Assembly: GCA_963756875.1 (NCBI GenBank)
Contig: CAVWPA010000003.1
Coordinates: forward strand, 64,001-128,000
Source: an uncultured Verrucomicrobiae bacterium
Lineage (GTDB): Bacteria; Verrucomicrobiota; Verrucomicrobiia; Chthoniobacterales; UBA10450
Length of the DNA: 64,000 nt
Direction: 5' to 3'
The translations under genes and the position numbers were made by a program. This document shows positions 37,572 through 59,967 of the stretch, piece by piece; the first letter of the stretch is position 1; the number at the start of each line of letters is the position of its first letter. The notes beneath the pieces are model-generated. The model ran no database searches. It was not told the DNA's origin and saw only the letters and a program-made list of their open reading frames with translations.

Positions 37572-37572
37572 G

Positions 37573-37681
37573 AAAACGCCCAACGCTGAACGTCCAACGC
37601 CCAATGTCGAATTCAGAAGCTCTGTTTTCGAGATTCGATGTTGGGCGCCTGCTCGCGAAGACTTTCGGAGTTCGGCGTTTT
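37573..37681. repeat. Inverted AACGYYC heptamer arrays with a nested 23-nt insert
   Basis: AACGCCC AACGCTG AACGTCC AACGCCC AATGTCG ... TTCGATG TTGGGCG [CCTGCTCGCGAAGACTTTCGGAG] TTCGGCG. Confidence 0.8.
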
Positions 37682-38721: not shown

Positions 38722-38810
38722 AAAACGTCCAGCGCCCGACGCTCAACGTCCAACGTTCAATGGTTATGAATTGCAAGTTGAGCGTTGGGCGTTGAGCGTC
38801 GAAAGTTGAG
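38722..38810. repeat. Inverted AACGYYC heptamer arrays
   Basis: AACGTCC AGCGCCC GACGCTC AACGTCC AACGTTC ... TTGAGCG TTGGGCG TTGAGCG TCGAAAG TTGAG. Confidence 0.85.
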
Positions 38811-38848: not shown

Positions 38849-39850
38849 ATGGCAAACTACGCAATTAACGGCTTTGGGCGCATCGGACGCAATGTCCTGC
38901 GCGCCATGACGCAAAAACAAGTCGAGCGCGTGCGCGCGATCAACGATCTCACCGATACCCATACTCTGGCGCACCTCCTCAAATGGGACTCGATACATGG
39001 CAAATTCGACGGCGAGATCGCTTACGATGACGAAAACATCATCGTGCGCGGTCACAAAATTAAAATCTTCAAAGAGCGCGACCCGGCGGCCCTGCCCTGG
39101 AAACAATTGGGAGTCGATGTGGTACTGGAATCGACCGGTTTCTTCACCAGCCGCGACAAGGCGGAGTTGCACCTGAGCAAAGCCGGCGCAAAACGCGTGC
39201 TTATTTCCGCGCCGGCGAAAAATCCGGATGCCACGATTTGCATGGGGATCAACGACGACATTTACGATCCGGCGAAACACACGGTGGTTTCAAATGCGAG
39301 CTGCACGACTAATTGCCTCGCGCCGATGGCCAAAGTACTGAACGACAAATTCGGGATCGAGCGCGGATTCATGAGCACGATCCACAGCTACACAAACGAC
39401 CAGCGCATTCTCGATTTTCCGCACAGCGACTTGCGGCGCGCGCGGGCGGCGGCGATAAACATCATTCCATCGAGCACCGGCGCGGCGAAAGCCATCGGCG
39501 AAGTGATTCCGCAACTGAAAGGAAAGTTGAATGGCGGCGCGTTTCGCGTGCCGACGCCGGACGGATCGGTGACCGATTTCACCGTTGTGCTGGCGAAGGA
39601 TGCGAGCGTCGACGCGGTGAACGCAGCGTTCAAGGAAGCCGCGTCGGCCAAGAGCTACAAAGGCGTGCTCGAATACAGCGATGAGCCTCTCGTTTCCCAG
39701 GACATCGTAGGCAACCCGCATTCCTGCATTTTCGACAGCAAACTGACGATCACGCTCGGCGAGCGTTTCGTGAAGGTGGTCGGCTGGTACGACAACGAAT
39801 GGGGCTATAGCAATCGCTGTGTGGAGATGCTCGAGATGCTGGGGGGGTAG
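38849..39850 (+). CDS. gap: Glyceraldehyde-3-phosphate dehydrogenase
   Basis: INGFGRIGR, NASCTTNCLAP and WYDNEWGYS. Confidence 0.98.
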   Translation: MANYAINGFGRIGRNVLRAMTQKQVERVRAINDLTDTHTLAHLLKWDSIHGKFDGEIAYDDENIIVRGHKIKIFKERDPAALPWKQLGVDVVLESTGFFTSRDKAELHLSKAGAKRVLISAPAKNPDATICMGINDDIYDPAKHTVVSNASCTTNCLAPMAKVLNDKFGIERGFMSTIHSYTNDQRILDFPHSDLRRARAAAINIIPSSTGAAKAIGEVIPQLKGKLNGGAFRVPTPDGSVTDFTVVLAKDASVDAVNAAFKEAASAKSYKGVLEYSDEPLVSQDIVGNPHSCIFDSKLTITLGERFVKVVGWYDNEWGYSNRCVEMLEMLGG

Positions 39851-39854
39851 GGAG

Positions 39855-39886
39855 TCTTGATCATGCTCATGCTCCTGATCATGATC
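39855..39886. repeat. Left hexamer array of the four-helix-bundle cassette
   Basis: TCTTGA TCATGC TCATGC TCCTGA TCATGA TC. Confidence 0.8.
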
Positions 39887-39891
39887 GAGTA

Positions 39892-40323
39892 ATGAAAAGC
39901 TACTTCGATCACGAAAAACTGGATGTATATCAGCAATCGATCGCGTTCTGCGGATGGGTGGGCGATTTTATCAACGCAATTTCGAGCAAGGCTGCCGCGA
40001 AAGATCAACTCGACCGCGCGTCCACGAGCATCCCGCTGAACATCGCGGAGGCAAATGGCAAGTTCTCGGATGCCGATCGGGCGCGATTTCTCGAGATTGG
40101 TCGCGGCTCTGCTCTGGAATGCGCGGCCTGCCTGGATGTGCTAGTTGCAAGACAGCTCGCTGCCGCAGATCAAATTGTTCCCGCAAAACAACAGCTTGTC
40201 GGCATTGTAAACATGCTCATGGGCCTGCTGAAGCGGTTCTCCAGTCGCGCGGAGTTTTTGCGTGAGGATGATCCTGGATACCGGATCGATCAGGATCAGG
40301 ATCAGGATCAAGAGCATGAATAA
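39892..40323 (+). CDS. Four-helix-bundle protein (23S rRNA IVP/bAvd-like family)
   Basis: FDHEKLDVYQ, DQLDRASTSIPLNIAE and FLEIGRGSALECAACLD. Confidence 0.9.
   Translation: MKSYFDHEKLDVYQQSIAFCGWVGDFINAISSKAAAKDQLDRASTSIPLNIAEANGKFSDADRARFLEIGRGSALECAACLDVLVARQLAAADQIVPAKQQLVGIVNMLMGLLKRFSSRAEFLREDDPGYRIDQDQDQDQEHE
40288..40319. repeat. Right hexamer array, inverted relative to 39855-39886
   Basis: GATCAG GATCAG GATCAG GATCAA GAGCAT GA; encodes DQDQDQDQEHE. Confidence 0.8.
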
Positions 40324-40338
40324 CAGCCCTCGCCGAAA

Positions 40339-41550
40339 ATGAAACTTTCGATCCGTGACGTCGATGTTCGCGGCAAGCGCGTCCTTGTCCGCGTCGATTT
40401 CAATGTGCCGATCGCGGAGCGCGACGGAAAAATCACGATCACCGACGACACGCGGATTCGCGAAAGTTTGCCGACCATCAATTATCTGCGGGAACACCGC
40501 GCCAGGACGATTTTGATGTCGCATCTTGGGCGGCCAAAAGGAAAACGTGTCGACAAATATACGCTGCGGCCCATTGCCGACCATTTGCACGCGCTGATCG
40601 ATCAACCGGTGATTTTCAGTCACGACACGCTGGGCGAAGTGCCGCAACAAATTATCGAGCACATGCAGGAAGGCGATGTGGCCCTGCTTCAAAATTTGCG
40701 CTTCCAGCCCGGAGAAGAAGCCAACGATCCAAAGTTCGCCGAAGCACTTGCGAAATTCGGCGATATCTACGTGAACGACGCCTTCGGCGCGGCGCATCGC
40801 GCGCATGCATCGACTACGGGTGTCACGAAATTCATCAAAACATGCGCGATGGGTTTCCTAATGGAGAAGGAACTGAAATATCTCCACGAAGAACTTGATC
40901 GCCCTGCCAAACCGTTCCTCGTCATCATGGGCGGCGCGAAGGTATCGGACAAGATTGGCGTTCTTAAAGCGCTCATGGAAAAGGCAGACACAATTCTGAT
41001 CGGCGGCGCGATGGCGAACACGTTTTTCAAGGCGCAGGGGATTCCGATTGGAGCAAGTCGCGTTGAAGCGGATAAAACCGGTCTGGCAAACGAACTGATC
41101 GAGCTTGCCACAAAGCGCGGTGTGAAGTTGGTCCTGCCGGTCGATGTTTTGGAAGCGAAGGATATTCGCACTGGCGCGGAAACACGGAATACGCCGCGTT
41201 TGTCGCCGCAGAAAGGGATCGACGATGGCTGGCAGGCAGTCGATGCCGGCAGTGCGACCATTGCGCTCTTCCGGGAGGAAATCGCAAAAGCCAAAACGAT
41301 TTTATGGAACGGGCCGCTCGGGATTTTTGAAATCCCGGATTTCGGGCGTGGCACAACCGCGATTGCCGAAGCCATGGCAAAATCGAATGCGACTACGATC
41401 ATCGGCGGCGGCGACTCGGTGACCGCGGTAAAGCAGGCCGGGCTCGCAGACAAAATGACATTCATCTCGACCGGCGGCGGCGCGTCGCTGGAATTACTCG
41501 AAGGAAAAGAGTTGCCCGGCGTCGCGGCGCTAACGGACAAGAAATCATGA
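40339..41550 (+). CDS. pgk: Phosphoglycerate kinase
   Basis: RVDFNVP, SHLGRPKG, NDAFGAAHR, GGAKVSDKI and STGGGASLE. Confidence 0.98.
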   Translation: MKLSIRDVDVRGKRVLVRVDFNVPIAERDGKITITDDTRIRESLPTINYLREHRARTILMSHLGRPKGKRVDKYTLRPIADHLHALIDQPVIFSHDTLGEVPQQIIEHMQEGDVALLQNLRFQPGEEANDPKFAEALAKFGDIYVNDAFGAAHRAHASTTGVTKFIKTCAMGFLMEKELKYLHEELDRPAKPFLVIMGGAKVSDKIGVLKALMEKADTILIGGAMANTFFKAQGIPIGASRVEADKTGLANELIELATKRGVKLVLPVDVLEAKDIRTGAETRNTPRLSPQKGIDDGWQAVDAGSATIALFREEIAKAKTILWNGPLGIFEIPDFGRGTTAIAEAMAKSNATTIIGGGDSVTAVKQAGLADKMTFISTGGGASLELLEGKELPGVAALTDKKS

Positions 41551-41617: not shown

Positions 41618-41635
41618 TGAGGCGGACGTTTCGTG

Positions 41636-42409
41636 ATGCGAAAGAAGATCGTTGCCGCCAACTGGAAGATGAATATGACGCAGGAAGAGTCTGCGCATTT
41701 TGTCGAATCGTTGCTTCTCGACCTGGGCGACATCTCCGATGTGGAAGTGGTGATCGTTCCGCCCTTCACGGCGATTGCCAGGGTTGCCCAGTCGCTCGGC
41801 AAGGCGCAAAACATTAAGGTCGGCGCGCAGAACATGTACTGGGAGCACAATGGCGCGTTTACCGGCGAGATCAGCGCGGCGTTGTTGCGCGACTTATATG
41901 TGCGTTACGTCGTGCTCGGTCATAGCGAACGCCGTTCCCTGTTCCGCGAGACGGACGAAATCGTGAACCGAAAAGTCCGGGCCGCGCATGAAGCGGCTCT
42001 TCGGCCGATCGTCTGTGTTGGAGAGACATTGGCCCAACGTGAAAAGGGTAACGTCGAAAAAATCCTGTCGATCCAACTGCGCGCCAGTCTCAAGGACCTG
42101 GGCGAAAAGGAACTGCAGGAAACGGTAATCGCCTACGAACCGGTCTGGGCCATCGGCACCGGCCGCGTGGCCACGCCGGACCAGGCGCAGAGCGCGCACG
42201 CCTTCATTCGACAAATACTTGTAAAAATCTCCGACGAGGCGACGGCCGACCGCATGCGCATCCAGTACGGCGGCTCCGTGAAACCGGAGAACGCACGCGA
42301 GCTGATGACTCAGCCGGACATCGACGGCGCCCTGGTCGGCGGCGCCAGCCTCGATCCGCGCAGCTTCGCCGAAATTGTCAAAGCGGCGCGCGACGAAGAA
42401 TCGTCGTAG
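41636..42409 (+). CDS. tpiA: Triosephosphate isomerase
   Basis: ANWKMN, GHSERR, AYEPVWAIGTG, YGGSV and LVGGASL. Confidence 0.98.
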   Translation: MRKKIVAANWKMNMTQEESAHFVESLLLDLGDISDVEVVIVPPFTAIARVAQSLGKAQNIKVGAQNMYWEHNGAFTGEISAALLRDLYVRYVVLGHSERRSLFRETDEIVNRKVRAAHEAALRPIVCVGETLAQREKGNVEKILSIQLRASLKDLGEKELQETVIAYEPVWAIGTGRVATPDQAQSAHAFIRQILVKISDEATADRMRIQYGGSVKPENARELMTQPDIDGALVGGASLDPRSFAEIVKAARDEESS

Positions 42410-42456: not shown

Positions 42457-43212
42457 TTATTTTTTAATTTCCAGATAAGTGCGAGATAGCACGTGGTTTG
42501 TGCCGGGCTTCAATTGTTCGATGCGCATTTGTTTCAGAAACCAGCGGTTGTCGATTTTCTGCGCCGAGACGACTTCGAATCGTTTCAACAGTTGCCCCTT
42601 CCAATCGTAACCTTCCATCCGCATGAGCGCGCCGCTCTGCTTGTCTACCCACAGAAACACGTTTGAGTATTGCGACTCGCGCGACGGCGCATGCAATTGC
42701 AATTTCCAGCAATTGCGCGTGCGCACGTTTTCCTCGCCCAAAACGCGCGCATTTGGCCAATAAAGAAATCTAAGCGCGAGATCGCCGTAGGTAACTCCGG
42801 TGCCGCGAATGTCCTCACTGAACTTCGAGGCTGTGAATTTTTCCTTGTCGCCGCCGGATACCAGATCGAGACGGGAGCCATGTTCGCCCAATCGCAATTG
42901 CAACACCTGGTCGGGGTTGGAAAACACGTAACGGATGATCGGGCCGTCCTGAATGAGCCGAAACGGGACCACGGTGTCGTTTTGACGAAGCTGCCCTTGC
43001 AAATCGAGATGCTGCTGCGACTCCAGCATGCGGACCGAATCGAGCACCTCTTTCGCGGAAGGAACCGCGCCGCCGTAAACCGGCAGCGAAACAAGAGCCA
43101 AAGCAATGACGAACGAAGCTCGAATGCTCAAATGATCACAAAATGATGGCCGCGCCTTTCGCCAGGTGGACTTCTTTGTTTCCTTCGTCATTAGACATTC
43201 GTCATTCGTCAT
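42457..43212 (-). CDS. LolA-like outer-membrane lipoprotein-sorting protein, start uncertain
   Basis: IRGTGVTYGDL, SQYSNVFLWVDK and YDWKGQLLKRFEV. Confidence 0.7.
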   Translation of the reverse strand: MTNDECLMTKETKKSTWRKARPSFCDHLSIRASFVIALALVSLPVYGGAVPSAKEVLDSVRMLESQQHLDLQGQLRQNDTVVPFRLIQDGPIIRYVFSNPDQVLQLRLGEHGSRLDLVSGGDKEKFTASKFSEDIRGTGVTYGDLALRFLYWPNARVLGEENVRTRNCWKLQLHAPSRESQYSNVFLWVDKQSGALMRMEGYDWKGQLLKRFEVVSAQKIDNRWFLKQMRIEQLKPGTNHVLSRTYLEIKK

Positions 43213-43220
43213 TGATCATT
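43105..43220. repeat. Inverted AATGACG-type heptamer arrays
   Basis: AATGACGAACGAAGCTCG AATGCTCA AATGA ... TTCGTCA TTAGACA TTCGTCA TTCGTCA TTGATCA TT. Confidence 0.75.
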
Positions 43221-43273
43221 CTGACTTAAAACCGCGGACTTTAAAGTTAAGCTTCCTCCTCGCATTCAGACAC

Positions 43274-48769: not shown

Positions 48770-48771
48770 AG

Positions 48772-48883
48772 AAAACGCCGGGCGCCCAACATCGAGCCCA
48801 AAGCCCGAACTGTTGCGCGACGTGCGATCGCAAGATTCTTTCATTGGGCGTTGGACGTTGGGCGTTGGGCGTTGGACGTTTTC
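48772..48883. repeat. Inverted AACGYYC heptamer arrays
   Basis: AACGCCG GGCGCCC AACATCG AGCCC... versus TTGGGCG TTGGACG TTGGGCG TTGGGCG TTGGACG TTTTC. Confidence 0.8.
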
Positions 48884-48892
48884 TTCCTGAAC

Positions 48893-57369: not shown

Positions 57370-59967
57370 TCACTCGCCAGGCGAAGGCAGCGGAGGCGGA
57401 GTGACCGACTCCAAGAGCGTGCCCTCTGTTTGTTCATCCAATGGACCGACCGGCTCGGCACGGCGAATCTCGACCGGCTCTTCCTGCTTTGGCTGCACGG
57501 GAATCGCCTTTAAAATCGGTTTGCCATCCTTGGTGATTCCTGTCTCGGCAGCTGGTGTGGTTGCCGGTTGCACCGGTTGCACCGGTTGCACCGGTTGAGC
57601 CGTTTGAACCGGTTGAGCAGGCGGCGCCGGCTCTTGTGGTACGGGCTGTGGCTCCGGAGTGGGCTCCGGTTTTATCGTCGCCTTTGCAGAATGATAAGGA
57701 TCTTTGTCAGCCAGCAGGGTAGGACCCTTTGCAATCACCGGCTTAACCTCATTGAGGTCGACCGCAAGCTCGGCGCGCGGCCATTCCGCCGCGGGAAGAT
57801 CGCGCACTAAACGAGTGCGCGCTTCCCCGTGCACATTGCATGGCTCAGTCGGCAGTTGGGCAGGTGTCGCGATTTCCATGTAGGTCGTGCGTTTCTGAAC
57901 AGGAGCGCCGGTCGGGCCCTTTACCGTGTCGTAGCACTTGTCCGTGGCGAGCAGACCCGAGCGCGAGCAGATCTCCACCTCTTTCAAATCGGACGGCCTT
58001 TTAATTTTGTGAGGAGGATAAGGTCCAATGGCCGCATTCATGATATCAACCCAGACCGGCAGGGCCAGATCGTGTCCGAACGCGCCCCGGTAAATCTCCT
58101 GTGGCTTGTCGAAGCCGGCCCAGACTCCGCAAGTGAAGTTGCTGTCGTATCCGACAAAAAGCGCGTCGGTAAAATCGTAAGCCGTGCCGGTCTTGCCCGC
58201 GACGTCCGGAATGGGTTTGAGACCAAGCTCCGTGCGCGCGGTTTTTCCCGTTCCTTTTTCCAATGCATCGACCAGGCACGAGTGAACTTCGTAGGCTGTC
58301 TCCGGTTTGATCACTTTTCGTTTGGTTTCGTCGTGCCGCGAGTCCCAAACAACTGTCCCGTCTTTTTCTTCAATGCGTTCCAAAATATGCGGGGCAGTCG
58401 GCCGCCATCCGCCGTTTGGAAAAATCGTGTAGGCCAGCGCAAGCTCGGCCAGAGTGACTTCGCTGCTGCCGAGAAAAGTTGCCGGATACGGCCGGAGTTC
58501 CGAATGAATTCCGGCGGCGTGACAAAGACGCAGCACATTGTCGAGACCCGCGGCCATGCCAATTCGCACGGTCGCGCCATCCTTCGATTTCGCCAATGCC
58601 TGGCGCGCGGTCATCGCACCTTCGTAGCGGTTGTCCGCGCTTTCCGGTCCCCACTCGCCCAGAATTCCCGTGGTGCCGCCGATCATGACCGCGCGGTTGT
58701 CGAGCGGCGAATCTTCCACTACCGAACCCGGATACATTCCATTTTCAAACGCTGCGGCGTAAACGAAAGGCAACATCGCGGTTCCAGCCGGGCGCTTCGC
58801 CTGCAGAGCGCGATCGTACTGATTATGCTCGAAATCGCGGCCGCCAACGAGCACGAGAATGCCACCGGTCTCGTTATTAATTCCGATCACAGCGCCTTGC
58901 AGATACTCGGGCGCGGGCTGTTTCCCGTTAGATTTCCCCTTGTGAAAACTCGCCGCGTATTCCGCATACGTCTGGTGATTGTAACCGGGATGCTGCTCCG
59001 CCTTCTCCAGGCTCTTGCGCAACGACTCCTCCGCCACCTTTTGCAGGTCGGCATCGATAGTCGTGTGAATCCGGAAACCTTCGTTCATGGCGCGGTCCCA
59101 GCCCACTGCCGCGATGACCTGCTGGCGAATGTAATCCACCGCGTACGTCTTTCCCTGTGCGTTCTGCCGGCTGCTGACCTCTATCTTTTCCGCCTGCGCC
59201 TTCGCGCATTCGGCCTTGGTGATGAATCCGAGATCGCGCATCCGGCTCAGCGCATAATTGCGCGCCTCCCGCGATGCAGCCGGATCGGCCCAGGGCGATA
59301 AATTGTTCGGACTCTTGATCAAACCGGCCAGCGTCGCGCATTCTGCCAGCGACATCTCGCCGGCCGTCTTACCGAAATACCCGCGCGCCGCCGCCTCCGC
59401 GCCATACAGGCCGCCGCCGAAATAAATCCGGTTCAGATAAAGCTCCATGATCTTCTGCTTGCCGAAGCGATCTTCGATGCGGCGGGCGAGAAAGATCTCC
59501 AGCAGTTTGCGGCGGTACGTCCTTTCCTTGAGCGAGAAACTGTTGCGCGCCAGTTGCTGAGTGACCGTGCTGGCCCCCTGGCGAACATGACCGGCCAGAA
59601 GATTTTTCAACGCCGCACGCATGATCCCCATGAGATCGTAGCCGTGGTGTTGATAAAATTTGGAGTCCTCCACCGCTACGACGGCGTCGATAAGGTAGCG
59701 CGGCAACTGGTCGTACGGAACGGTTTCCCGATTTTCCACATAGATCTGGCCGAAAATCTTGCCGTTCCGGTCCAGGATCACGCTGGCGGATTCCATCTGT
59801 TCCAGTTTGCTCAGATCGAAAGTGGCGGCCCGGCTTTTGAGATCGGACGCCACGGTCGACAGATAAATCGCGCACGCACTGAAAAGGACCGCTGCGATGG
59901 CCAACGGCACATAAAACACCGGGCGCTTGTACCACGGCGGCCGAAACCTGTAGCCAGGCGGCGGCAT
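57370..59967 (-). CDS. Class A penicillin-binding protein (PBP1A family)
   Basis: EDSKFYQHHG, GASTVTQQL, RKLLE, YLNRIYFG and GKTGT; Pro/Gln-rich tail. Confidence 0.92.
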   Translation of the reverse strand: MPPPGYRFRPPWYKRPVFYVPLAIAAVLFSACAIYLSTVASDLKSRAATFDLSKLEQMESASVILDRNGKIFGQIYVENRETVPYDQLPRYLIDAVVAVEDSKFYQHHGYDLMGIMRAALKNLLAGHVRQGASTVTQQLARNSFSLKERTYRRKLLEIFLARRIEDRFGKQKIMELYLNRIYFGGGLYGAEAAARGYFGKTAGEMSLAECATLAGLIKSPNNLSPWADPAASREARNYALSRMRDLGFITKAECAKAQAEKIEVSSRQNAQGKTYAVDYIRQQVIAAVGWDRAMNEGFRIHTTIDADLQKVAEESLRKSLEKAEQHPGYNHQTYAEYAASFHKGKSNGKQPAPEYLQGAVIGINNETGGILVLVGGRDFEHNQYDRALQAKRPAGTAMLPFVYAAAFENGMYPGSVVEDSPLDNRAVMIGGTTGILGEWGPESADNRYEGAMTARQALAKSKDGATVRIGMAAGLDNVLRLCHAAGIHSELRPYPATFLGSSEVTLAELALAYTIFPNGGWRPTAPHILERIEEKDGTVVWDSRHDETKRKVIKPETAYEVHSCLVDALEKGTGKTARTELGLKPIPDVAGKTGTAYDFTDALFVGYDSNFTCGVWAGFDKPQEIYRGAFGHDLALPVWVDIMNAAIGPYPPHKIKRPSDLKEVEICSRSGLLATDKCYDTVKGPTGAPVQKRTTYMEIATPAQLPTEPCNVHGEARTRLVRDLPAAEWPRAELAVDLNEVKPVIAKGPTLLADKDPYHSAKATIKPEPTPEPQPVPQEPAPPAQPVQTAQPVQPVQPVQPATTPAAETGITKDGKPILKAIPVQPKQEEPVEIRRAEPVGPLDEQTEGTLLESVTPPPLPSPGE
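57565..57618. repeat. 9-nt coding tandem repeat, (QPV)n
   Basis: CCGGTTGCA three times plus degenerate copies in the PBP1A tail. Confidence 0.7.

Follow-up and report, generated by a model that had tools for sequence, protein, structure and literature searches.

An intervening-sequence-type cassette between gap and pgk of a verrucomicrobial operon, and the link of its word-array arms to a dispersed repeat

Why should a small gene of the PF05635 family stand between the glycolytic genes gap and pgk, enclosed by two inverted arrays of the same six-base word? The question arises from a stretch of 64,000 nucleotides of an uncultured Verrucomicrobiae bacterium (Chthoniobacterales, UBA10450; assembly GCA_963756875.1, contig CAVWPA010000003.1, positions 64,001 to 128,000), which we call the window; the 2.69-Mb genome from which it comes (87.6% complete, three contigs, here C1 to C3) is referred to as the host genome. 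A cassette of about 470-490 bp, made up of a PF05635 gene, here the intervening-sequence protein (IVP) gene, and two inverted arms of about 33 nt each, occupies the entire space from the gap stop to the pgk start. The original prediction, made from the letters alone, had taken it for a compact cassette without a transposase and perhaps for an undescribed mobile or RNA-processing unit. The cassette does consist only of the PF05635 gene plus its arms; it is of the type of the 23S rRNA intervening sequences (IVS), placed in an mRNA operon, and its word-array arms are tied to a dispersed repeat.

The upstream host gene is gap (38849..39850, + strand; Gp_dh_N 1.8e-38, Gp_dh_C 4e-67), which encodes glyceraldehyde-3-phosphate dehydrogenase and whose reading frame closes with a TAG stop codon at 39848-39850. 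The left arm (39855..39888), delimited by an inverted-repeat search, contains about five hexamers of the form NTRMTC, complementary to GAKYAN. Its first letter lies 5 nt past the gap stop and its last 3 nt ahead of the IVP start codon, so that the arm occupies the position expected of a ribosome-binding site, and its tandem GAKYAN-type array lies at C3:103857-103886, which is 39857-39886 of the window. The IVP gene (39892..40323, +) encodes 143 amino acids and matches PF05635 (Pfam, 8.8e-21) and TIGR02436 (5.9e-20). Its open reading frame (ORF) terminates in ...RIDQDQDQDQEHE, the last ~11 residues, DQDQDQDQEHE, being the translation of the right arm (40286..40319), which lies inside the 3' end of the ORF and comprises five GAKYAN hexamers (three GATCAG, one GATCAA and one GAGCAT); within it, Tandem Repeats Finder (TRF) calls a period-6 array at 40288-40310. 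A spacer of 15 nt, read from the sequence (40324..40338, +), leads from the IVP stop to the downstream host gene pgk (40339..41550, +; PGK, PF00162, 1.2e-152), which encodes phosphoglycerate kinase. The coordinates and letters of the 143-aa ORF that splits gap from pgk are as originally claimed, and so is the translated tail.

The two arms, 39855-39888 and 40286-40319, are complementary at 27 of 34 positions (79%), and one hexamer out of register the segments 39861-39886 and 40294-40319 pair over 26 nt at 88%. The flank match of 25/32 given in the original prediction is returned by a hand count of 39855-39886 against the reverse complement of 40288-40319. This pairing exceeds chance. We scored the best ungapped inverted match between start flank and stop flank for each of the 5708 ORFs of 100-250 aa in the host genome, and the IVP gene, with a score of 18.5, took rank 5/5708, against a median of 6.5 and a 99th percentile of 10.0. 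Rank 7 fell to a second hexamer-armed PF05635 gene (15.0), and the ORFs outranking the IVP gene are other boxed small genes (RAYT-like, GxxExxY, GIY-YIG). A third IVP gene (locus L001), with arms beyond the chosen flanks, was missed by this ranking and reaches 30.5 when the flanks are widened.

The boxed layout is general among PF05635 genes. The original prediction had proposed examining the other four-helix-bundle genes of the host genome for inverted arrays, and all of its PF05635 genes (3/3) are boxed: the second stands between nuoF and nuoG, with arms CTACTCTTTCTCATGCTCTTGCTCATGCTC and ...GAGCATGAGCAAGAGAAAGAGTAA and the tail ERDQEHEQEKE, and the third, between a WecG-type transferase and a carbamoyltransferase gene, has inverted arrays of the heptamer GAGGACA. 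A subfamily set of 80 loci at 50-81% identity was returned for the IVP gene, of which 78 were evaluated, L066 and L104 lying too near the locus end. The inverted-match score is at least 12 in 70 of these 78 loci and in none (0/78) when the left flanks are shuffled. A control with the right flank reversed was unclean, 28 of the 78 loci still scoring at least 12, because the reversed hexamer array retains much of the word pattern; we relied on the shuffled-flank control and on the genome-wide ranking. The subfamily arms are always hexamers GAKYAN and their complement, throughout Verrucomicrobiota, Planctomycetota, Lentisphaerota, Kiritimatiellia and one Desulfococcaceae genome. Two other sets of PF05635 loci from the phylum score at least 14 in 22/27 and 49/78 cases (71/105 in total; shuffled 0), and in the second of them the arm period is 7 in 38, 8 in 10 and 9 in 1 of the 49 loci. 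Arm arrays called by TRF are ~33-35 nt long irrespective of period, with a median of 4.6-5.7 units. A rule of five words per arm for a pentameric protein was considered and dropped, since the constant length fits equally well.

Whether the arms belong to the protein or to the nucleic acid can be read from the position of the right arm in the 70 subfamily loci: it lies within the ORF in 48, across the stop in 12 and downstream in 10. Identical hexamers thus occur across or beyond the stop codon, which makes the arms a nucleic-acid feature that is translated only where it falls in frame. Left and right arms co-evolve. Between the arms of the same locus, the mean score is 21.3 at gap|pgk and 22.5 at the other sites, against 16.4 and 11.8, respectively, for arms paired across loci, and 0 of 5000 permutations matched the own-pair mean. 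The word also shifts in step, both arms reading GATCAN in the window and both reading GAGCAS in locus L006. In four planctomycetal loci (L098, L102, L103 and L110) the arm polarity is flipped, purine-rich GAKNAG words standing upstream and its complement downstream, both outside the ORF, an arrangement that is not obtainable by simple inversion between the arms.

Half of the subfamily loci (39/78) are gap|pgk orthologues. The remaining sites include nuoF|nuoG (8-9), peptidase M19|metallo-beta-lactamase (8) and a position beside priA (2), as well as HlyD|AcrB, FtsW|radical-SAM and GDP-mannose dehydratase (gmd)|epimerase junctions. In 62 of the 78 loci the gene points the same way as its two neighbours, and in 5 it runs opposite to both. 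Against Rfam, neither the window nor the 18 subfamily loci without Pfam-named neighbours gave a match at or above a family's gathering score, so that none of those 18 is an rRNA context by the Rfam test. Clades of the protein tree follow the insertion sites, with Shimodaira-Hasegawa-like approximate likelihood-ratio (SH-aLRT) supports of 97 for the LactB clade and 99 for the nuoF|nuoG clade. The exceptions are the priA-adjacent pair, which is nested inside the gap|pgk group, a copy beside a MotA-like gene (L061) that retains the left arm only, and one nuoF|nuoG copy among the gap|pgk copies. In these exceptions homology begins at the arm, which indicates that copies move together with their arms, but rarely. 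The mobile unit of the original prediction therefore stands as far as these few site switches go; the movement is rare and old, and no near-identical copies were found.

How the cassette came to lie at this junction was traced through the pgk loci of 23 genomes of the same family and 6 of the same order, in each of which the gap|pgk junction was read. The empty-site comparison that the original prediction had called for yielded empty, filled, degraded and gene-less states alike. Four of the 23 family relatives have an empty junction of 0, 5, 10 or 11 nt (L015, L005, L017 and L008, respectively), in six the IVP cassette is open and 478-529 nt long (L006, L012, L014, L019, L023 and L026, where L023 was counted as open with an ambiguous start codon), and in one (L022) it is degraded and in part duplicated, at 770 nt. 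Gene-less hairpins of a different 7-8-base word fill four junctions (L010, L011, L018 and L021), another palindromic element (GTCATCC...) fills seven (L007, L009, L013, L016, L020, L024 and L025), and the last, L033, has a different filling of 72 nt. In an eighth family genome (G008) the coordinates place an IVP gene beside the split pgk. Among the same-order outgroups, five of six junctions measure 0-41 nt and the sixth contains an unrelated ORF. Insertion into a normally tight junction, as originally supposed, agrees with the 0-11 nt of the four empty relatives and with these outgroups. Three of the loci, L015, L007 and L024, belong to genomes that carry an unpublished flag (G007, G014 and G002, respectively); their exclusion leaves three empty sites and five GTCATCC fills.

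The IVP state is scattered over a tree of gap and pgk, where it requires no fewer than 8 changes, and the junction is empty in L005, the closest relative, which shares 86-89% identity with the host genome in gap and pgk. By this scatter and the empty L005 site, the gap|pgk junction is a hot spot for hairpin elements, and the cassette there is an old insertion, inherited in about a third of the family's genera and often lost or replaced. The GTCATCC element of the seven junctions is palindromic, 90-160 nt long, with ~27-nt arms starting GTCATCCCGAGCGAAG..., and has about 14 loose (fuzzy) matches in the host genome; it looks like a separate family resembling MITEs (miniature inverted-repeat transposable elements) or repetitive extragenic palindromic (REP) sequences that shares the junction hot spot. 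In L019 (about positions 4-90 of the junction), L023 and L022, an extra right-arm-like array stands just upstream of the left arm and could form a local hairpin able to compete with long-range arm pairing; in L022 this module is duplicated and the IVP frame is broken.

The protein itself is an unmistakable member of its family. It scores 74.6 bits against PF05635 (cut-off 33.8), residues 8-110 aligning with positions 1-105 of the 106 in the profile, and 71.5 bits against TIGR02436 (cut-off 24). PF05635 is its sole Pfam match, and no HUH/Y1 transposase domain was found in it. By sequence, the nearest solved relative is a Xanthomonas pentamer (PDB 2gsc, XCC0516; E 1.6e-6). A motif (G)xxRxxxSxxxNxxE has been described for Xcc0516 homologues in the accessible text of PMC3936711, and the IVP protein carries it as QLDRASTSIPLNIAE, with R, S, N and E in register and Q instead of G at the first position; the RxxxSxxxNxxE stretch of the ORF translation reads RASTSIPLNIAE. 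The median dN/dS (ratio of nonsynonymous to synonymous substitution rates) of the core is 0.089 over 170 usable, dS-unsaturated pairs of 741, so that the protein core is under strong purifying selection. Taken with the co-varying arms and with an IVP stop that abuts the pgk start in most orthologues, this low ratio marks the cassette as old and functional. PF05635 occurs in 107 of the 151 genomes of the phylum sample, with a maximum of 23 copies per genome.

The word of the arms is not confined to the cassettes. Tandem GAKYAN arrays of at least three words number 49 in the host genome and form 35 clusters, where a rough chance expectation for four tandem words is ~0.001. The clusters divide into the 2 hexamer-armed cassettes, 6 inverted pairs without a gene, 4 same-strand multiples and 23 solo arrays, the latter having no inverted partner within 800 nt. 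The two arms of a gene-less pair are 4-94 nt apart; as with the cassette, co-directional ORFs lie near, at 14-21 nt, and all inverted GAKYAN pairs (8) are of one polarity. The GAGGACA heptamer of the third IVP gene is likewise dispersed, with 10 arrays and 0 of the reversed word.

Array abundance is linked specifically to this PF05635 subfamily. Among 151 family genomes, which include the unpublished G002, G007, G014 and G298, 71 have a subfamily IVP gene (E<=1e-20) and 80 do not. The median number of four-word windows is 23 (interquartile range 10-69.5) in the former and 3 (0.75-9.25) in the latter, and at least 40 windows are found in 23 genomes with the gene and in 2 without it. Within genera holding both states, the median is higher for IVP-positive genomes in 17 of 19 (sign test 0.0007), one genus giving 141 against 11. 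Spearman's rho with the number of array windows is 0.58 for subfamily copies, 0.33 for other PF05635 copies and 0.37 for genome size, and in a rank regression the corresponding t values are 6.6, 1.4 and 2.5. The dispersed gene-less arrays and their link to the subfamily gene are new; the original prediction had missed the dispersal.

Two further observations concern the distribution of these words in the host genome. A segment of 8 kb (C3:1550969-1558422) is rich in both GAGGACA (4) and GAKYAN (4) arrays. Some solo hexamer arrays, for example C1:339462-339491 and C1:326451-326480, lie inside long open frames, and their pyrimidine-rich strand reads as a hydrophobic LLILIMILLMI near an N-terminus.

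What, then, is the cassette? We lean, without great confidence, towards an old insertion of an IVS-type cassette combined with a gene-repeat partnership that involves word-specific nucleic-acid binding. The IVP gene and the word repeat would be partners in the manner of RAYT (REP-associated tyrosine transposase) genes and REP sequences; the IVP protein would most likely bind arrays of its own word, or help to make or maintain them, and the arms would simply be the arrays that adjoin the gene. A broader version, which we put forward only tentatively, is that PF05635 proteins at large are trans-acting partners of tandem arrays of 6-9-base words, which they would make, spread or stabilise at transcribed junctions; every subfamily would have a word of its own to recognise, and a pentameric ring would be matched by the roughly five words of an arm.

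Several results weigh against this partnership. The link between gene and repeat is a correlation over genomes that are related and therefore not independent, and a cassette's own arms add up to ~8 windows each; once 8 windows per cassette are deducted, the medians become 10 and 3. Two of the 19 genera show the opposite direction, at least 20 windows occur in 10 IVP-negative genomes, and at most 2 in 5 IVP-positive ones, whose copies are all more distant. The protein core is near neutral (isoelectric point 6.55 here, median 7.9), whereas Avd, the accessory protein of diversity-generating retroelements (DGRs), is basic, and we know of no catalytic domain in PF05635. No near-identical paralogues occur among the 107 PF05635 loci of the phylum sample, the best same-genome pair being 76% identical at the nucleotide level; recent transposition was rejected on this ground, and propagation of arrays or cassettes by the protein, if any, would have to be slow, or the arrays alone move. 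The pairing of the arms is no clear sign of a selected RNA either. A sense stem selected as RNA should favour G·U over A·C at positions outside Watson-Crick pairing, and no such excess was found on the sense strand, with G·U against A·C at 44 vs 41 in the hexamer class and at 20 vs 43 and 44 vs 53 in two other phylum sets. Sense and antisense duplexes are equally stable, at -46.6 vs -46.4 kcal/mol (p 0.76) and, in a second set, at -43.2 vs -43.6 kcal/mol (p 0.60). Terminator-like hairpins of the host genome, used for calibration, did lean the expected way, with 11 G·U and 5 A·C, but in 33 cases only, so that the power of the test is uncertain, and many arm mismatches fall at variable word positions, where they may reflect register and not point change. 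Given the missing G·U excess and the equal duplex energies, the complementarity looks strand-symmetric, as if kept by a DNA-level process or by wobble-intolerant pairing.

These results bear on the possibility that the cassette is an RNA-processing unit, whose arms exist as a stem for RNase III in the gap-IVP-pgk-tpiA transcript, cleavage of which would free the IVP mRNA and split the operon message. This doubtful but serious account overlaps the partnership reading and differs from it only in making RNA processing the purpose of the arms. It draws on the helix-45 IVS of Coxiella burnetii, described in the accessible part of PMC4990558 as 428 nt long, with a nearly perfect 28-bp stem, an S23p ORF and excision by RNase III, and by this analogy the arms may form a stem in RNA. 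In the operon transcript they would make a stem of ~26-34 bp that brings the gap stop beside the pgk start. When the cassette region was folded, as the original prediction had suggested, both the minimum free energy (MFE) and the centroid structure of 39845-40345 closed the arms, on either strand; arms of ~33-35 nt at any period would be long enough for RNase III, the host genome has the RNase III gene (rnc), and the co-orientation of gene and neighbours in 62/78 loci fits as well, so that cleavage as in rRNA intervening sequences is possible. The fold z-score, however, is only -2.0 for the sense strand and lower, -2.6, for the antisense strand, and neither the G·U counts nor the duplex energies single out the sense RNA. 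A cut in the stem would also separate the pgk start from the overlapping IVP stop in most orthologues, and the ~23 solo arrays without an inverted partner within 800 nt are left unexplained. Arm pairing in mRNA and an IVS-like looping out of the ORF, as originally proposed, are thus putative: the predicted fold closes the arms, but wobble pairs and strand bias lend no backing. In our view, the RNA stem is a consequence that the host operon accommodates and not the reason for the arms.

Strand-symmetric complementarity would also suit a DNA transposon or MITE-like element, in which the arms are terminal inverted repeats that an enzyme encoded elsewhere would recognise as DNA, for instance in the form of single-strand hairpins, and the IVP gene is cargo. 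We think this unlikely. Dispersed gene-less hairpins and solo arrays, rare site switches with arms moving with the gene, the boxing of unrelated small genes (PDDEXK_3 GxxExxY and GIY-YIG) in the same fashion and the presence of palindrome-flanked Y1 (IS200-like) transposase genes in the host genome all speak for it. No target-site duplication, however, is visible at the junctions examined and no near-identical copies exist, so that the cassette shows neither of these marks of insertion sequence (IS) elements and MITEs. The word of each protein subfamily, moreover, stays the same from phylum to phylum; the number of arrays goes with the subfamily gene and not with other PF05635 copies, which argues against passive cargo; and the supposed cargo is under strong purifying selection.

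The boxed small genes of the host genome deserve description in their own right. All five of its PDDEXK_3 (GxxExxY) genes, which are small and of the nuclease fold, have inverted flanks, four of them scoring 14.5-22 and one 13: C1:473342-473755(+), C3:1126458-1126841(+), C3:667225-667620(-), C1:480618-480965(-) and C2:10039-10386(+). Several of these flanks are made of 7-8-base words (ACGGATT, ACGCCAAA, ACACGAATGG), and since all five genes are boxed, the boxed-cassette design is common to an unrelated small-gene family. Five other small ORFs also have top-ranking inverted flanks. One is the GIY-YIG gene at C1:528442-528792(-). Three RAYT-like genes, C3:1596655-1597131(+), C3:1591790-1592317(-) and C3:11960-12409(-), stand between REP-like palindromes; one of them matches Y1_Tnp and two have no Pfam match. 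A perfect palindrome flanks a 137-aa ORF, C3:1782843-1783256(+), also without a Pfam match.

The fit of the cassette into its operon raises the question of whether it has become an operon gene. In the 39 gap|pgk orthologues the left arm starts at a median of ~5 nt past the gap stop. In 25 of them no spacer parts IVP from pgk, whose start codon the IVP stop touches or overlaps, mostly as ATGA; in 36 the distance is at most 15 nt, and in the window it is 15 nt. Read from this spacing, a translational relay from gap through IVP to pgk seems plausible: a ribosome finishing gap would open the left arm, pgk initiation would depend on translation of IVP, and the promoterless cassette would have its expression chained to that of its neighbours. 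We also considered a relay through the left arm by way of a possible mini-ORF in the gap frame (39857..39892, +; TTG...TAA, LIMLMLLIMIE), put forward from the sequence reading, whose stop overlaps the IVP start as TAATG. Its frame is not kept in all orthologues, a similar overlap being present in L006 and none in L019, and it is retained as a mere possibility.

Domestication, in which the protein would serve glycolysis or regulation and the arms would tune the gap/pgk ratio by translation or attenuation, accounts for the long retention at gap|pgk, for a dN/dS of ~0.09 and for the overlap of IVP stop and pgk start. We regard it as very improbable, in view of the traceless loss in close relatives, as at the empty junction of L005, and of the presence of the subfamily at unrelated junctions such as nuoF|nuoG, peptidase M19|metallo-beta-lactamase and HlyD|AcrB. 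That an acidic low-complexity tail (DQDQ/EQEH) should merely happen to complement an upstream stretch, an idea invited by a right arm that is translated in the window, as it is in 48 of 70 subfamily loci, is hardly credible as the origin of the arms and is refuted by the genome-wide rank (5/5708), by 70/78 loci scoring at least 12 against 0/78 when shuffled, by the persistence of arms that are not translated, by the co-variation of the arms, and by heptamer- and octamer-armed relatives, which cannot encode a regular tail.

Placed beside known systems, the cassette shares parts with several of them. The closest of them are the ORF-bearing 23S rRNA IVS, found in Leptospira as well as in Coxiella. 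As far as the accessible descriptions go, the resemblance lies in a length of ~430-490 nt, a terminal stem of ~28-34 bp, a PF05635/S23p ORF in the loop, the lack of a transposase, sporadic distribution with empty sites and the existence of ORF-less hairpin versions. The stem-forming terminal repeats, the IVP ORF in the loop and the sporadic sites of an rRNA IVS are thus present, and the rRNA location is not: the cassette lies between two protein-coding operon genes and not in an rRNA helix. Its arms, in further contrast, are tandem arrays of a 6-base word that is dispersed genome-wide, and translation runs into the right arm. Whereas PMC4990558 reports the Coxiella ORF to be decaying and not to be made in vivo, the cassette ORF is under strong purifying selection and seems coupled to the next gene. 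IVP ORFs are also recorded from rRNA insertions of bacteria of the candidate phyla radiation (CPR) in the part of PMC11270868 that could be consulted.

A second parallel is offered by REP sequences and their genes. In the RAYT/REP system a single small gene, encoding an HUH/Y1 transposase, stands between inverted short repeats that also occur without the gene ("REPtrons" being the name given to such units), repeat abundance follows the gene, and subfamilies go with different repeats. The cassette likewise has a gene between inverted repeats, the same repeat dispersed without the gene and an abundance that tracks the gene, the last as a correlation. Unlike RAYT proteins, its product is a predicted four-helix bundle without a known catalytic motif, and its repeats are tandem word arrays instead of single imperfect palindromes.

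Tandem word arrays have their own precedents. The short tandemly repeated repetitive (STRR) sequences of cyanobacteria are comparable arrays of short words. Rehm et al. 2015 (PMC4692102) described dispersed heptamers of Xanthomonas (GGGAATC) and Nostoc (GGGGAYT), which the available text reads as G-quadruplex formers. As described there, they resemble the arms in being tandem words of 6-9 bases, typically in 4-5 units, between co-directional ORFs near stops and starts, often as convergent (inverted) pairs and mostly transcribed (PMC4692102); GAKYAN words, unlike them, have no G-tracts. Neither four-helix-bundle genes nor intervening sequences are mentioned in the accessible text of PMC4692102.

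Related by fold is the DGR accessory protein bAvd, a pentameric four-helix bundle stated in the available portion of bioRxiv 10.1101/2023.10.23.563531 to be "similar to S23 ribosomal proteins", and for which Avd-binding stem-loops and flanking duplexes in the DGR RNA were sought. The likeness is that of a related pentameric fold, and bAvd acts on nucleic acid; the core of the cassette protein is near neutral and, unlike bAvd, not strongly basic. A role in a DGR was rejected, the neighbours being gap and pgk and neither template nor variable repeats being present; the reverse transcriptase profile RVT_1 found no match in the host genome at its given completeness, and none adjacent to the IVP gene. 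A similar setting is that of the 23S_rRNA_IVP genes which Zhang et al. 2014 (PMC3936711) describe within CRISPR-cas operons, one such place being between cmr3 and cmr2. There, too, a PF05635 gene is wedged between two operon genes and the motif RxxxSxxxNxxE is shared; the accessible text interprets the gene as a cas-associated function and reports no flanking repeats. From our results, genes placed in this way would seem to be cassettes inserted at operon junctions. We found no publication that reports such a cassette outside rRNA or that connects these systems with one another, subscription journals lying outside the coverage of the search, which leaves the original description of the unit as undescribed in place.

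Other features of the window are of related interest. A gene-less hairpin of a 7-base word family (GTTGRGC and its complement) was located by repeat search just upstream of the gap start (38737..38801), with arms of 24 nt (38737-38760 and 38778-38801) that are 92% complementary; a TRF array of period 7 (38777-38810) overlaps it. This hairpin is separate from the cassette and shows that word-array hairpins flank the glycolytic operon too. Hairpins or arrays of this second word family (GTTGRGC / AACGYCC heptamers) also occur at 37572-37604 and 48770-48884, and frames across them yield recurring "TLNVQR"-like peptides in spurious ORFs. A tandem array of 5.4 copies of TTCGTCA at 43184-43221 has no inverted partner within ~1 kb, and 5.8 copies of the 9-mer CCGGTTGCA stand in tandem at 57564-57615. 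Past pgk follows a co-directional ORF of 258 aa (41633..42409, +), putatively tpiA, as the original prediction named it, in line with an N-terminal AANWKMN motif.

To our knowledge, the function of PF05635 has gone unexplained for 30 years, and the family is among the commonest bacterial families of no known function, one that the literature connects only with rRNA IVS and, through its fold, with the DGR protein Avd. The locus shows the hairpin-boxed design in an ordinary, essential operon, and dozens of genomes, compared at this single site, form a natural series in which the junction is empty, filled, or occupied by a degraded or gene-less element. It further ties one protein subfamily, in quantitative terms, to how abundant the repeat of its own arms is across the genome, a link that may account for widespread and unexplained short tandem word arrays. 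For annotation, small genes in cas, nuo, efflux and glycolysis operons should be checked for arms before they are called functional members of those operons. If the broader reading of PF05635 proteins as partners of tandem word arrays were true, rRNA IVS, operon IVP genes and dispersed word arrays would be faces of one mobile system, widespread and enzyme-less-looking.

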